From: a virus
Lineage: Duplodnaviria; Heunggongvirae; Uroviricota; Caudoviricetes
Reading direction: 5' to 3' (one strand)
DNA: 6,376 bases
Virus record (IMG/VR): IMGVR_UViG_2700989365_000005
The position numbers and the translations under genes are program-made. This document shows, piece after piece, positions 1-6,376 of the stretch. The notes beneath the pieces were generated by a model. That model was not told where the DNA came from. It did not search any database and saw only the letters and a list, made by a program, of their open reading frames with translations. Every line of letters starts with the position of its first letter. Within the stretch, counting starts at the first letter, position 1.

Positions 1-1
1 C

Positions 2-46
2 TGGCGCACTGACGGTTTCATCGTGGGTGTCGGTTATAAATTCTGA
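2..46 (+). CDS. lom: 3' end of upstream gene (start outside window); C-terminus of a Lom/Ail/OmpX-family outer-membrane beta-barrel protein
   Basis: Frame starting at base 2 reads WRTDGFIVGVGYKF followed by TGA at 44-46. A ...GVGYKF C-terminus ending in Phe is typical of Ail/Lom/OmpX beta-barrels, and lom lies directly upstream of stf in phage lambda (gene order recalled, not searched). The call rests on 14 residues only. Confidence 0.5.
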   Translation, partial: WRTDGFIVGVGYKF

Positions 47-110: not shown

Positions 111-1117
111 ATGGCAGTAAAGATTTCAGGTGTACTGAAAGACGGCACAGGAAAACCGGTACAGAACTGCACAATCCAGCTGAAAGCAAAACGTAACAGC
201 ACCACGGTGGTGGTGAACACGCTGGCCTCAGAAAATCCGGATGAAGCCGGGCGTTACAGCATGGACGTTGAGTACGGTCAGTACAGCGTTATTCTGTTGG
301 TGGAAGGATTCCCGCCGTCACATGCCGGGACCATCACCGTGTATGAAGATTCCCGACCCGGTACGCTGAATGATTTTCTCGGTGCCATGACGGAGGATGA
401 TGCCCGTCCGGAGGCACTGCGCCGTTTTGAGCTGATGGTGGAAGAGGTGGCGCGTAACGCGTCCGCGGTGGCACAGAACACGGCAGCCGCGAAGAAATCA
501 GCCAGCGATGCCAGCACATCAGCCCGTGAGGCGGCAACCCATGCGACTGATGCTGCAGGCTCAGCGCGTGCAGCCAGCACGTCAGCCGGACAGGCCGCGA
601 CTTCGGCTCAGGAGGCGTCTTCCAGCGCAGGAACGGCATCAACAAAGGCCACTGAAGCATCAAAAAGTGCTGCCGCTGCAGAGTCCTCAAAAAGCGCGGC
701 GGCTACCAGTGCCGGTGCGGCGAAAACGTTAGAAACGAATGCGGCAGCGTCACAACAATCAGCAGCCACTTCTGCATCCACCGCGACCACGAAAGCGTCA
801 GAAGCTGCCACCTCAGCCCGGGATGCGTCGGCTTCAAAAGAGGCGGCAAAATCATCAGAAACGAACGCATCATCAAGCGCCAGTAGCGCAGCTTCCTCGG
901 CGACGGCGGCTGCAAATTCTGCGAAGGCGGCCAAAACGTCCGAGACGAACGCCAGGTCTTCTGAAACGGCAGCGGGACAGAGTGCCTCAGCTGCGGCAGG
1001 CTCAAAAACAGCGGCTGCGTCGTCTGCCAGCGCCGCGTCAACAAGTGCCGGGCAGGCCTCAGCCAGTGCCACCGCCGCCGGAAAATCGGCAGAAAGCGCC
1101 GCATCATCCGCTTCAAC
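111..1117 (+). CDS. stf: Side tail fibre protein, 5' fragment (copy A); N-terminal domain plus Ala/Ser/Thr-rich shaft, truncated at an N-gap
   Basis: ATG at 111 gives [60 protein letters not shown]..., which I recognise as the N-terminus of lambda Stf (memory, no search). The ORF track starts at GTG 105, but ATG 111 matches the known N-terminus. The frame meets NNN at 1118-1120 and then reads through duplicated intergenic sequence to TAG 1128-1130, so this is not a complete gene. Confidence 0.8.
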
Positions 1118-1120: not shown

Positions 1121-1153
1121 TTCTGATTAGCCAGGTAACACAGTGTTATGACA

Positions 1154-1179
1154 GCCCGCCGGTTCAGGCGGGCTTTTTT
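1154..1179 (+). terminator. Second copy of the lom-stf intrinsic terminator
   Basis: Identical sequence to 74-99, offset by 1080 nt. Confidence 0.7.
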
Positions 1180-1190
1180 GTGGGGTGAAT

Positions 1191-2183
1191 ATGGCAGTAA
1201 AGATTTCAGGTGTACTGAAAGACGGCACAGGAAAACCGGTACAGAACTGCACAATCCAGCTGAAAGCAAAACGTAACAGCACCACGGTGGTGGTGAACAC
1301 GCTGGCCTCAGAAAATCCGGATGAAGCCGGGCGTTACAGCATGGACGTTGAGTACGGTCAGTACAGCGTTATTCTGTTGGTGGAAGGATTCCCGCCGTCA
1401 CATGCCGGGACCATCACTGTGTATGAAGATTCCCGACCCGGTACGCTGAATGATTTTCTCGGTGCCATGACGGAGGATGATGCCCGTCCGGAGGCTCTGC
1501 GCCGTTTTGAACTGATGGTGGAAGAGGTGGCGCGTAACGCGTCCGCGGTGGCACAGAACACGGCAGCCGCGAAGAAGTCAGCCAGTGATGCCGGCACATC
1601 TGCCCGTGAGGCGGCAACCCATGCGACTGATGCTGCAGGCTCAGCGCGTGCAGCCAGCACGTCAGCCGGACAGGCCGCGACTTCGGCTCAGGAGGCGTCT
1701 TCCAGCGCAGGAACGGCATCAACAAAGGCCACTGAAGCATCAAAAAGTGCTGCCGCTGCAGAGTCCTCAAAAAGCGCGGCGGCCACCAGTGCCGGTGCGG
1801 CGAAAACGTCAGAAACGAATGCTGCAGCGTCACAAAAATCAGCAGCCACTTCTGCATCCACTGCGACAACGAAAGCGTCAGAAGCCGCCACTTCAGCCAG
1901 AGATGCGGCGGCCTCCAAAGAGGCGGCAAAATCATCAGAAACGAACGCCTCCACAAGCGCCAGCAGTGCAGCCTCCTCGGCAACGGCGGCAGGAAATTCC
2001 GTGAAGGCGGCAAAAACGTCCGAGACGAATGCTAAGTCTTCTGAAACGGCAGCGGAACAGAGCGCCTCAGCTGCGGCAGACTCTGAGACAGCAGCTGCAT
2101 CATCGGCCCGTGAGGCGTCCATTAAGGCAGAGGAGGCAGCAGTCAGTGCCACCGCCGCCGGAAAATCGGCAGAAAGCGCCGCA
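1191..2183 (+). CDS. stf: Side tail fibre protein, 5' fragment (copy B, diverged allele), truncated at a 21-N gap
   Basis: ATG 1191 with the same SD and N-terminus [12 protein letters not shown].... It is collinear with copy A but carries scattered substitutions (e.g. 1495 t vs 415 a; 1511 a vs 431 g) and a strongly diverged 3' part (about 2040-2150 vs 960-1070; protein ...AEQSASAAADSETAAASSAREASIKAEEAAVSA vs ...[33 protein letters not shown]). The frame runs into the N-run at 2184. Confidence 0.8.
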
Positions 2184-2204: not shown

Positions 2205-2240
2205 GACGGTTTCATCGTGGGTGTCGGTTATAAGTTCTGA
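2205..2240 (+). CDS. lom: Second copy of the lom 3' end (last 11 codons DGFIVGVGYKF, stop TGA 2238-2240); fragment only
   Basis: Same peptide as 11-46 but with AAG instead of AAA for Lys (2231-2233 vs 38-40), so it is a distinct allele of the lom terminus. Confidence 0.5.
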   Translation, partial: DGFIVGVGYKF

Positions 2241-2267
2241 TTAGCCAGGTAACACAGTGTTATGACA

Positions 2268-2293
2268 GCCCGCCGGTTCAGGCGGGCTTTTTT
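2268..2293 (+). terminator. Third copy of the lom-stf intrinsic terminator
   Basis: Identical to 74-99, offset by 2194 nt. Confidence 0.7.
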
Positions 2294-2304
2294 GTGGGGT
2301 GAAT

Positions 2305-4508
2305 ATGGCAGTAAAGATTTCAGGTGTACTGAAAGACGGCACAGGAAAACCGGTACAGAACTGCACAATCCAGCTGAAAGCAAAACGTAACAGCACCACG
2401 GTGGTGGTGAACACGCTGGCCTCAGAAAATCCGGATGAAGCCGGGCGTTACAGCATGGACGTTGAGTACGGTCAGTACAGCGTTATTCTGTTGGTGGAAG
2501 GATTCCCGCCGTCACATGCCGGGACCATCACCGTGTATGAAGATTCCCGACCCGGTACGCTGAATGATTTTCTCGGTGCCATGACGGAGGATGATGCCCG
2601 TCCGGAGGCACTGCGCCGTTTTGAGCTGATGGTGGAAGAGGTGGCGCGTAACGCGTCCGCGGTGGCACAGAACACGGCAGCCGCGAAGAAATCAGCCAGC
2701 GATGCCAGCACATCAGCCCGTGAGGCGGCAACCCATGCGACTGATGCTGCAGATTCAGCACGTGCAGCCAGCACGTCAGCCGGACAGGCCGCTTCGTCGG
2801 CTCAGTCAGCGTCTTCCAGCGCAGGAACGGCATCAACAAAGGCCACTGAAGCCTCAAAAAGTGCTGCCGCTGCAGAGTCCTCAAAAAGCGCGGCGGCTAC
2901 CAGTGCCGGTGCGGCGAAAACGTTAGAAACGAATGCGGCAGCGTCACAACAATCAGCAGCCACTTCTGCATCCACCGCGACCACGAAAGCGTCAGAAGCT
3001 GCCACCTCAGCCCGGGATGCGTCGGCTTCAAAAGAGGCGGCAAAATCATCAGAAACGAACGCATCATCAAGCGCCAGTAGCGCAGCTTCCTCGGCGACGG
3101 CGGCTGCAAATTCTGCGAAGGCGGCCAAAACGTCCGAGACGAACGCCAGGTCTTCTGAAACGGCAGCGGGACAGAGTGCCTCAGCTGCGGCAGGCTCAAA
3201 AACAGCGGCTGCGTCGTCTGCCAGCGCCGCGTCAACAAGTGCCGGGCAGGCCTCAGCCAGTGCCACCGCCGCCGGAAAATCGGCAGAAAGCGCCGCATCA
3301 TCCGCTTCAACAGCCACAACGAAGGCTGGCGAAGCCACTGAGCAGGCCACGGCAGCAGCGAGGTCAGCTTCCGCAGCGAAGACATCCGAAACGAACGCGA
3401 AAGCGTCGGAAACCAGCGCAGAATCCTCAAAAACGGCTGCCGCATCGTCCGCCAGTTCGGCGGCGTCATCGGCATCATCGGCGTCTGCTTCAAAAGATGA
3501 GGCGACCAGACAGGCGTCAGCAGCGAAGGGCAGCGCCACGACGGCATCCACGAAGGCGACAGAGGCTGCTGGTAGTGCGACGGCAGCAGCTCAGAGCAAA
3601 AGTACGGCGGAATCTGCAGCAACGCGCGCTGAGACAGCGGCAAAACGGGCAGAGGATATTGCATCCGCCGTGGCGCTTGAGGATGCGAGCACGACGAAAA
3701 AGGGGATAGTACAGCTCAGTAGTGCGACTAACAGCACTTCCGAGTCACTGGCGGCAACACCAAAAGCCGTTAAGGCCGCGTATGACCTGGCTAACGGGAA
3801 ATACACCGCACAGGATGCAACGACAGCACAGAAAGGGATAATCCAGCTAAGCAGCGCGACCAACAGCACGTCTGAAACGCTGGCGGCAACGCCAAAGGCA
3901 GTAAAAGCAGCCAATGACAATGCTGAGAAACGTCTGCAGAAAGATCAGAACGGTGCGGATATCCCTGGCAAAGACACCTTTACGAAAAATATTGGTGCCT
4001 GCCGTGCCTTCGGTGGGTCAGTAAGCACAACAACAGGAAACTGGACGACTGCACAGTTTATCGAGTGGCTGGATTCTCAGGGAGCATTTAACCATCCATA
4101 CTGGATGTGCAAGGGTTCCTGGTCTTATGGCAATAATAAAATCATTACTGATACTGGCTGCGGTAATATTCATCTCGCCGGAGCTGTCATTGAAGTAATG
4201 GGGATAAAGTCAGCGATGACGATCCGCATTACCACTCCGACCACATCCAGCGGTGGCGGAACAACCAACGCCCAGTTTACCTATATTAATCACGGAACAG
4301 ATTATTCACCTGGCTGGCGAAGGGACTATAACTCCAGAAATAAGCCAACGGCATCAGAGATCGGGGCGCTACCGTCAGGTGGAACAGCAGTATCATCAGT
4401 TAATCTGGCTTCAAAAGGTCGGGTAGCCGCGCTGACAGACAATACGCAGGGGGCAGCAGGTCTTGAGTTATACGAGGTGTATAACAACGGATATCCAACA
4501 GCGTATGG
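2305..4508 (+). CDS. stf: Side tail fibre protein variant (copy C): lambda-Stf-like N-terminus and shaft, two 44-aa fibre repeats, then an alternative C-terminal tip domain; no stop before the junction at 4509
   Basis: ATG 2305 with the same SD and N-terminus. My manual translation finds no in-frame stop to 4508. Because GGN still encodes Gly, the frame formally continues across the N at 4509 into segment D and on to the window end, so a gene caller would report one ORF 2305..>6376. I split it at 4509 because 4510 onward re-duplicates 3367-3923. Confidence 0.75.
3700..3923 (+). repeat. Two tandem 132-nt (44-aa) tail-fibre repeats in copy C ([44 protein letters not shown]; second copy ends at ...[10 protein letters not shown])
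   Basis: Units start at 3700 and 3832, in frame. The [14 protein letters not shown] motif is characteristic of the phage tail-fibre repeat found in lambda Stf and related fibres (recalled). Confidence 0.8.
3924..4508 (+). other. Alternative C-terminal (putative receptor-binding tip) domain of stf copy C; lower GC, Cys-containing, unlike the lambda Stf C-terminus
   Basis: Translation [93 protein letters not shown]...[16 protein letters not shown]. It diverges from segment D immediately after the shared ...[10 protein letters not shown]. It is visibly more AT-rich than the shaft. I do not recognise the family. Confidence 0.55.
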
Positions 4509-4509: not shown

Positions 4510-6376
4510 GCTTCCGCAGCGAAGACATCCGAAACGAACGCGAAAGCGTCGGAAACCAGCGCAGAATCCTCAAAAACGGCTGCCGCATCGTCCGCCAGTT
4601 CGGCGGCGTCATCGGCATCATCTGCGTCTGCTTCAAAAGATGAGGCGACCAGACAGGCGTCAGCAGCGAGGGGCAGCGCCACGACGGCATCCACGAAGGC
4701 GACAGAGGCTGCTGGCAGTGCGGCAGCGGCAGCACAGAGCAAAAGTACGGCGGAATCCGCGGCAACGCGCGCCGAGACAGCAGCAAAACGGGCAGAGGAT
4801 ATTGCATCCGCCGTGGCGCTTGAGGATGCGAGCACGACGAAAAAGGGGATAGTACAGCTCAGCAGTGCGACCAACAGCACTTCCGAGTCACAGGCGGCAA
4901 CGCCAAAAGCCGTTAAGGCCGCGTATGACCTGGCTAACGGGAAATACACCGCACAGGATGCAACGACAGCACAGAAAGGGATAGTTCAGCTCAGCAGTGC
5001 GACTAACAGCACTTCCGAGTCACAGGCGGCAACGCCAAAAGCCGTTAAGGCCGCGTATGACCTGGCTAACGGGAAATACACCGCACAGGACGCTACGACA
5101 GCACAAAAAGGAATTGTCCAGCTCAGTAGTGCAACCAACAGCACATCTGAAACGCTTGCTGCGACACCGAAAGCAGTGAAAGCAGCTAATGACAATGCGA
5201 ATGGTCGGGTACCTTCTGCCCGTAAGGTGAATGGTAAGGCGCTTTCAGCGGATATAACACTGACGCCGAAAGATATTGGTACGCTTAACTCAACAACAAT
5301 GTCATTCAGCGGTGGTGCTGGTTGGTTCAAATTAGCAACGGTAACCATGCCACAGGCGAGTTCTGTTGTTTCAATTACGTTGATTGGTGGCGCTGGATTT
5401 AACGTGGGGTCACCTCAACAGGCAGGTATATCTGAACTTGTTTTACGTGCAGGTAATGGTAATCCGAAGGGGATTACTGGTGCTTTATGGCAGCGCACAT
5501 TGACAGGGTTTACAAATTTTGCCTGGGTTAATACATCTGGTGATACTTACGATATTTACGTTGCAATCGGAAATTATGCGACTGGTGTAAATATTCAATG
5601 GGATTATACCAGTAATGCCAGCGTGACGATTCATACGTCACCAGCATATTCTGCTAATAAGCCGGAAGGGTTAACGGACGGTACAGTTTATTCACTCTAT
5701 ACGCCATCAGAGCAGTTTTATCCGCCTGGCGCACCAATCCCGTGGCCATCAGATACCGTTCCGTCTGGTTATGCCCTGATGCAGGGGCAGACTTTTGACA
5801 AATCTGCTTACCCGAAACTTGCAGCCGCTTATCCGTCAGGCGTGATCCCTGATATGCGTGGCTGGACGATTAAGGGCAAACCTGCCAGTGGTCGGGCCGT
5901 ATTGTCTCAGGAACAGGACGGCATTAAATCGCATACCCACAGCGCCAGCGCATCCAGTACGGATTTGGGGACGAAAACCACATCGTCGTTTGATTACGGC
6001 ACTAAATCCACGAATAACACTGGTGCGCATACCCATAGTTTAAGTGGCAGCACGAATGCAGCTGGTAATCACAGCCATAGAGATGGCCGTCGATTTAACC
6101 CCAGTGTTTTTAAAGATACTTATCAATATGGTTATACAAGCTCAGGTCAAAATACCTGGGGTGTACAAGGCTCAGTAGGTATGTCTACGGGGTGGTTAGC
6201 GAATACCAGTATAGATGGTAATCATAGCCATTCACTGTCCGGCACAGCAGCATCTGCAGGTGCACACGCGCATACTGTCGGTATTGGTGCTCATACGCAC
6301 TCCGTTGCGATTGGTTCACATGGACACACCATCACCGTTAACGCTGCTGGTAACGCGGAAAACACCGTCAAAAACA
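4510..6376 (+). CDS. stf: Side tail fibre protein, 3' portion (segment D): shaft, three 44-aa fibre repeats, a central domain and a lambda-Stf-like His-rich C-terminal domain; 3' end outside window
   Basis: Same frame as copy C. The C-terminal part reads [76 protein letters not shown]...[21 protein letters not shown], closely matching my memory of the lambda Stf C-terminus, which ends ...[18 protein letters not shown]. The window therefore stops about 10 codons before the expected stop. Confidence 0.8.
4843..5198 (+). repeat. Three tandem 132-nt (44-aa) tail-fibre repeats in segment D (units at 4843, 4975, 5107; last unit partial)
   Basis: Units 1 and 2 are near-identical (SESQAAT...[19 protein letters not shown]). 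Unit 3 (SETLAAT...AANDNA) corresponds to the second unit of copy C. Segment D therefore has one extra repeat unit relative to copy C. Confidence 0.8.
5932..6327 (+). other. Array of seven His-x-His motifs in the C-terminal domain of stf segment D (SHTHS, AHTHS, NHSHR, NHSHS, AHAHT, AHTHS, SHGHT)
   Basis: Read directly from the translation. HxH motifs coordinate metal ions in the trimeric distal tips of some phage tail fibres, for example T4 gp37 (recalled established knowledge). No structure is known to me for this protein. Confidence 0.6.

Follow-up and report, generated by a model that had tools for sequence, protein, structure and literature searches.

The start of a lambdoid tail fibre gene (stf) occurs three times in the 6,376-nt stretch of viral DNA analysed here (the window), raising the question of whether the copies form a tandem array in a genome, represent different prophage loci, or arose during assembly. 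The ATG codons are located at positions 111, 1191 and 2305, each in a separate contig piece: A (1–1117), B (1121–2183) and C (2205–4508). A fourth piece, D (4510–6376), carries a more distal part of stf. The pieces are separated by three Ns between A and B (1118–1120), 21 Ns between B and C (2184–2204) and a single N between C and D (4509). A, B and C each begin at or just past the 3′ end of lom and continue through a terminator hairpin and a ribosome binding site (RBS) to the start of stf. They align without gaps in a common register, in which position x in A corresponds to x + 1080 in B and x + 2194 in C (offsets from B of −1080 to A and +1114 to C). D is in register with C from position 3367 of C. 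The first 113 nt of D are identical to C, beyond which the identity is 92–98%, and the two sequences become unrelated near position 5050 in D.

Divergence of fragment B

Fragment B starts with the last lom codon and the stop codon (1121–1126), followed by the terminator and the RBS. This upstream part (1121–1190, plus strand) is identical to A and C, in agreement with a preliminary description of the sequence, and belongs to a 297-nt identical run (1121–1417) common to all three copies that includes the first 227 nt of stf. The remainder (1191–2183, plus strand) comprises codons 1–331 of an stf haplotype denoted H1, encoding a PF08400 domain (aa 1–134) and an Ala/Ser-rich shaft. Of 1063 aligned sites, 60 differ between B and A (94.4% identity) and 70 between B and C (93.4% identity). 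Among the A–B differences, 9, 11 and 40 fall on the first, second and third codon positions, respectively, with no indels and no stop codons.

Within the PF08400 domain of B there are five differences (1418, 1496, 1511, 1577 and 1586), all of them synonymous, leaving residues 1–134 without any amino acid change. The change at 1593 is non-synonymous (S135G) and affects the first codon past the domain. The preliminary description had called the N-terminal substitutions mostly synonymous, which holds for all five in PF08400, but the position it gave as 1495 is 1496, and its 1591 is either 1586 or the non-synonymous 1593. Alignment of the three copies nucleotide by nucleotide, with Nei–Gojobori counts for A versus B in successive codon segments, confirmed a gradient of divergence that ends in a dense block. 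Codons 1–125 contain three synonymous and no non-synonymous differences, codons 126–200 four and one, and codons 201–280 19 and six, respectively. The hyperdivergent block at codons 281–318 (2031–2144, plus strand), in which B departs from both A and C, has 27 substitutions in 114 nt and 12/19 amino acid changes; for A versus B, Sd and Nd are both 13.5, corresponding to dS = 0.63, dN = 0.185 and dN/dS = 0.29. Codons 319–331 are identical between A and B, and B is likewise identical to C over the 40 nt that follow the block (2144–2183).

Along stf, dS thus climbs about 20-fold, from 0.03 to 0.63 (up to 24% divergence), and then drops to zero difference. This clustering is non-random: the maximum χ2 of 53.1 was reached in 0 of 2000 permutations. 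The block had previously been described as dense and non-synonymous. It is dense, but about half of its changes are synonymous, and positive or diversifying selection on 2031–2144 was rejected, given a dN/dS of 0.29 with a dS of 0.63. The pattern points to recombinational mosaicism, in which a segment of old or foreign ancestry has been maintained under purifying selection. These fibres are known to be modular: the N-terminal domain docks on a lambda-type tail and stays nearly invariant, while the shaft and the receptor-binding tip are swapped among phages by homologous recombination, giving rise to sharp-edged blocks of differing ancestry. Recombination of lambda with Rac and Qin through regions of stf–tfa identity has been shown experimentally (PMC3945230).

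The shaft itself is built from periodic repeats of 21 and 42 nt encoding heptads similar to K-S/T-SETNA, at about 450–1117, 1530–2183, 2640–3660 and 4510–4800. These repeats yield long spurious ORFs on the opposite strand, such as one of 249 aa at 2802–3551 on the minus strand. The annotated orf206b of lambda, which is antisense in the same region, may be an artefact of the same kind.

Tail fibres are classic targets of DGRs and of invertases, and we considered the possibility that the block at 2031–2144 was the product of programmed hypervariation, either by a DGR or by switching through an invertase of the Pin/Gin/Cin type. A gene for a pin-family recombinase is indeed found just downstream of tfa in complete loci of both allele types. 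However, invertases switch the variable C-terminal part of a fibre, whereas the block is located in the shaft, and its sequence is fixed, being identical in hundreds of genomes. The substitutions comprise 38 transitions and 32 transversions, and the alternative haplotype (H2, see below) has an A at only 16 of the 70 sites, a spectrum that is not adenine-specific and therefore does not fit DGR-type mutagenesis. Apart from the allelic copies, all long direct repeats in the window are ordinary shaft and fibre repeats, and neither the window nor the three complete loci that were read (L001–L003) encodes a reverse transcriptase. The window also contains no inverted repeats of at least 30 nt and no crossover-site-like (gix-like) sequence at up to three mismatches, which argues against invertase switching, and pin cannot explain differences at single positions within the first third of the gene. 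We regard programmed hypervariation as having practically no bearing on this block.

B is a real allele that circulates in Escherichia coli. An IMG/VR contig without Ns (L008) matches B at 100% over all 1063 nt, and 177 complete E. coli records match it at ≥99%, the best at 99.6%. A 61-mer specific to B was present in three metagenome contigs (ENA/JGI) and nine IMG/VR contigs, and absent from the GTDB representative genomes. Residues 1–134 of the B product span the full 134-position PF08400 profile (E = 1.9e-72; score 242 bits, cut-off 26.6), the first 94 residues match a chain named “Tail fiber protein” in PDB entries 9e7m/9mgh (E = 1.4e-52), and the product is 84% identical to lambda orf-401 over 326 aa. 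There was no Rfam match to a structured RNA in the window. If the B variants were sequencing or assembly errors at one stf locus, a reading for which nothing speaks beyond the low quality of an N-containing scaffold, such errors would have to account for an exact match in an independent assembly, for the 177 complete-genome records, and for 60–70 substitutions that show a strong third-position bias, include no indels and keep the frame intact. The preliminary description had dismissed noise as a source of the B variants; the exact L008 match and the codon-respecting pattern exclude it for practical purposes.

Two haplotypes account for the window

Fragment D (4510–6376, plus strand) contains stf codons 355 to about 976 of H1 and is truncated by the end of the window. 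In the complete genome of strain GE3 (L001), B maps to 6001–7063 and D to 7133–8999, both within a single CDS of 986 aa that has J and lom upstream and tfa and pin downstream. The 69-nt spacing between the two in GE3 equals the register gap between the end of B and the start of D in the window. The same arrangement is present in L003, in L008 and in at least five other genomes among the matches listed. L008 matches D at 99.8%, and the H1 gene is 986 aa long in L008 as well as in GE3. By these matches, B and D belong to a single stf allele of 986 aa, H1. That they are physically joined in this sample, where the intervening 69 nt are missing from the window, is inferred from the other genomes. 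H1 and H2 differ at four sites within those 69 nt, which ruled out a collapsed shared node, identical in both alleles, as the cause of the break between B and D.

D encodes three PF03406 repeats, a Collar domain (PF07484) and, by a weak match, PF03335 fibre repeats. A 132-nt tandem repeat of 2.3 copies at 4841–5144 (plus strand) encodes the PF03406 tail fibre repeats. The C-terminal part of D is 70% identical to lambda orf-314 over about 238 aa. Positions 5930–6340 encode a series of His-x-His motifs (HTHS, GAHTHS, GNHSH, GNHSHS, GAHAHT, GAHTHS and GSHGHT), which we take to resemble the metal-binding needle repeats of fibre tips of the T4 gp37 type.

Fragment C (stf at 2305–4508, plus strand) represents codons 1–734 of the second haplotype, H2, and encodes a PF08400 domain, two PF03406 repeats and a distal region similar to Mu S. 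It matches the IMG/VR contigs L023, L019 and L025 at 99.87%, with three mismatches in 2304 nt, and the H2 gene is 1027 aa long in L023 and L019. The closest match to C in a complete genome reaches only 98.5%, so that IMG/VR contigs are the only known source of near-exact H2. The distal region (3922–4506) matches residues 182–336 of the Mu tail fibre S/S′ structure (PDB 8ju3; E = 8.6e-76). C contains two PF03406 copies, at 3680–3923, compared to three in D, and the alleles thus differ both in sequence and in the number of repeats. From these comparisons, H1 and H2 have the virion-attachment end in common, whereas their tips are unrelated. The H1 tip resembles lambda Stf and T4 gp37, and the H2 tip resembles Mu S; particles carrying one or the other would be expected to differ in receptor specificity, with OmpC as a candidate receptor for the lambda Stf-like tip and LPS for the Mu S-like tip.

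The window was decomposed site by site using L008 as the reference for H1 and L023 for H2. B carried the H1 base at 70 of 70 discriminating sites. C was H2 except at positions 2234, 3415 and 3417, all three of which are H1 bases; for the combination at 3415 and 3417 there was no exact match in complete genomes (best 99.4%). D was H1 except at 5769, 5791, 5808 and 5826, which have H2 bases and lie where H1 and H2 are homologous again. Window positions 5700–5900, which include this patch in D, have 100% matches in complete genomes and match 957 records at ≥99%, and GE3 shares two of the four H2-type sites. As judged from these matches, the patch in D is a natural polymorphism, and short tracts exchanged between stf paralogues circulate naturally. 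No base in the window matched neither H1 nor H2.

Fragment A (codons 1–335; 111–1117, plus strand) has an H2 backbone, with the H2 base at 61 sites, and an H1 patch of ten consecutive sites at 559–659. The preliminary description had overlooked this cluster, at which A differs from C and is identical to B. Otherwise A and C are identical over 1107 nt, including the sites where the H2 of the window differs from the H2-like locus L002. The two switch points in A lie where H1 and H2 have the same sequence, in tracts of 37 and 44 nt. The mosaic (491–760, 270 nt) had no match at ≥99% in 5426 complete genomes, in which the best was 97.8%, and its junction (491–571) was absent from IMG/VR.

The two endings of lom sort in the same way. 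The lom 3′ end at 1–46 (plus strand), read directly as …GYKF* with its stop codon at 44–46, has AAA at 38–40 and is of the H2 type. The lom end at 2205–2240 (plus strand) has AAG at 2232–2234 and is of the H1 type, although it is attached to an H2-type stf. The variant, A at 40 versus G at 2234, is synonymous (Lys); AAG is found in L008 and GE3 (H1), and AAA in L002, L023, L019, L016 and L025 (H2). The identification of lom rests on an Ail/Lom annotation of the corresponding matches in complete genomes. The existence of two lom alleles had been recognised previously, with the AAG codon placed one position too low, at 2231–2233. By this sorting, the two endings are the same two loci again, joined in the window to stf fragments that are “wrong” or mixed. 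Each lom end is followed by an intrinsic terminator-like hairpin (73–94, 1153–1174 and 2267–2288, plus strand) with an 8-bp stem, including seven GC pairs, and a run of T. The three copies are identical.

Number of loci and origin of the scaffold layout

The preliminary description had proposed that the sample contained at least two distinct lom–stf loci. This proposal stands, since B (identical to L008) is distinct from C, and a third locus is not required. B and D were assigned to H1, C to H2, and A to H2 with an H1 patch; the sequence comparisons support at least two lom–stf loci or haplotypes in the sample. Because two haplotypes explain every base, neither the differences between A and C nor the lom endings add a third.

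The presence of three real loci would mean that A was a genuine third stf, produced when a tract of about 100–180 nt was converted from H1 into a duplicated H2. There are up to 14–15 stf-like places in E. coli genomes, natural exchanged patches do exist, as in D and GE3, and the assembler emitted three separate contigs for one region. These points make a third locus conceivable, but it remains a minority reading, as A is identical to C elsewhere, even where the H2 of the window departs from L002, its patch is exactly that of the co-assembled B, and the mosaic is missing from both the complete genomes and IMG/VR. Furthermore, the switches are located in just those identical tracts in which a de Bruijn assembler with a k of about 31 loses phase, although homologous recombination is possible there too. 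The more specific version, in which A is a third lom–stf locus in the same cell that had very recently received its tract from the co-resident H1 prophage, is somewhat less likely again. If A were real, the scaffold would have captured ongoing exchange between prophage tail fibre paralogues in one lineage. On this evidence, A is probably an assembly chimera of H1 and H2.

Whether the two haplotypes came from one cell is a separate matter that is not decidable from the window alone, which cannot separate haplotypes within a genome from those between genomes. In a metagenome or a contaminated culture, H1 and H2 could have come from separate strains or free phages; scaffolders serialise strain variants in metagenomes too, and B-type sequence occurs in ENA/JGI metagenome contigs. 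On the other hand, the two types are co-resident in at least two finished genomes among the matches listed. In EC23-1020 they occupy separate prophages, the H1 type at 1.63 Mb and the H2 type at 3.37 Mb, and strain 190 also carries both allele types. Polylysogeny is the norm, with a median of 2–3 stf 5′ ends per complete genome and a maximum of 14–15. In addition, the numeric identifiers of analogous N-gapped IMG/VR scaffolds (described below) look like those of isolate genomes, which we presume them to be. The comparative data favour two loci in one polylysogenic genome, and a mixed population appears unlikely.

All three junctions between pieces in the window are N runs, so that the copies are not contiguous as they would be in a true tandem gene duplication, and the complete genomes have one lom–stf unit per locus (L001, L002 and L003 were read). 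The pattern of A and B joined by NNN was not found in IMG/VR, a weak negative, since literal Ns may not have been matched by the search. However, serial N-separated pieces with overlapping stf registers, as in the window, were present in four further IMG/VR draft scaffolds (L015, L020, L022 and L024). Their gaps of one or four Ns fall inside stf, at 677 and 1342–1345 in L015, 3411 and 6838 in L020, 2571 and 3638 in L022, and 1348 in L024. The pieces in L015 and L024 break at stf register −69, the same point at which fragment B starts. The recurrence of these gaps and breaks suggests that one assembly pipeline produces a systematic artefact at the stf locus. In L015, a piece of H1 (99.7%) stands alongside one of H2 (100%), so that this pair of alleles occurs in at least one further assembly.

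Taken together, the N-run junctions, the single unit per complete locus and the analogous scaffolds identify the tandem layout as an artefact. We infer that the window is a draft scaffold of contigs from two paralogous prophage loci, and that the tandem triplication is not genome structure. The near-identical 5′ ends would have made contigs from the two loci look linked to a short-read assembler, and the phase between the loci would have been lost across identical tracts, leaving the H1 patch in A and the H1-type lom ending on C. The explanation as a whole, with B as the 5′ third of H1, D as its remainder, C and A from the H2 locus, and the arrangement as a scaffolding artefact, is in our view very likely correct.

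Known cases in which short-read assemblies serialise haplotypes or paralogues are similar in having consecutive pieces in the same gene register, here with only 1–21 Ns between them. False tandem duplication at collapsed repeats is likewise comparable in that the phase switches here occur only within identical tracts of at least 37 nt. The present case differs from the known ones in that the assembler origin is deduced solely from the structure of the sequence. Short reads have been reported to be unable to resolve the repetitive, paralogous prophage features of E. coli (PMC5359411). Genome structure should consequently not be read from the tandem triplication, from A as a “third” allele or from the pairings of lom with stf; variant calls or prophage typing from such scaffolds would lead to chimeric haplotypes, and long reads are needed (PMC5359411).

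Relation to known prophage tail fibres

The features of the window are those of a lambda-type Stf. PF08400 is present in B and C, there is homology to lambda orf-401 and orf-314, and distal repeats and a tip are represented by PF03406 (two copies in C, three in D) and by Collar in D, which is linked to B through GE3 and L008. The order lom–terminator–stf occurs three times in the window, and L001, L002 and L003 show the order L/K/I–J–lom–stf–tfa. On the basis of this homology, H1 and H2 are members of the set of prophage tail fibre genes to which stfR of Rac and stfQ of Qin belong, with a predicted fibre function.

In lambda PaPa, Stf is split into orf-401 and orf-314, whereas it is intact in Ur-lambda, where it is 774 aa long. 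The window genes resemble lambda stf in their position, directly after lom and the terminator and, in complete loci, before tfa, and in the PF08400, PF03406 and Collar domains of the fragments. They differ in that H1 DNA is about 87% identical to lambda over the 5′ kilobase, that no PaPa frameshift was seen within the H1 part, and that H1 is longer, at 986 aa. The resemblance to Rac stfR, Qin stfQ and their relatives is closer, with complete-genome matches of 99.6% for H1 and 98.5% for H2, a J–lom–stf–tfa–pin context typical of resident prophages, and neighbours such as ydfK and ynaM-like genes. Some of the matches are annotated as stfR, and the RefSeq name is “prophage tail fiber N-terminal domain-containing protein”. 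There was no difference of substance from resident E. coli prophage stf genes; only the scaffold layout of the window is unusual. The likeness to Mu S/S′ is confined to the distal part of C and illustrates the known exchange of fibre tips across phage families. H2 differs from Mu in its lambda-type attachment domain and shaft, and in that no gix-like site is found in the window.

Polylysogeny involving several lambdoid prophages, the mosaicism of fibre shafts and tips behind conserved N-termini, and stf–tfa recombination are already established. What is added here is that B and D match a single gene, that two haplotypes explain all bases in the window, that A is a probable chimera, and that an artefact best explains the layout.

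Two further observations concern the region downstream of stf in the complete loci. In the H2-like locus of EC23-1020 (L002), a macro-domain CDS is situated between stf and tfa (8124–9026), an unusual passenger for a tail fibre operon; neither of the H1-type loci (L001 and L003) has it. In both L001 and L002, the pin-family recombinase gene directly follows tfa (9704–10294 and 9708–10298, respectively), and a 5′-truncated tfa pseudogene is found about 2 kb beyond (12210–12422 and 12216–12304). The recombinase gene and the pseudogene may be the remnants of an invertible fibre-tip segment.
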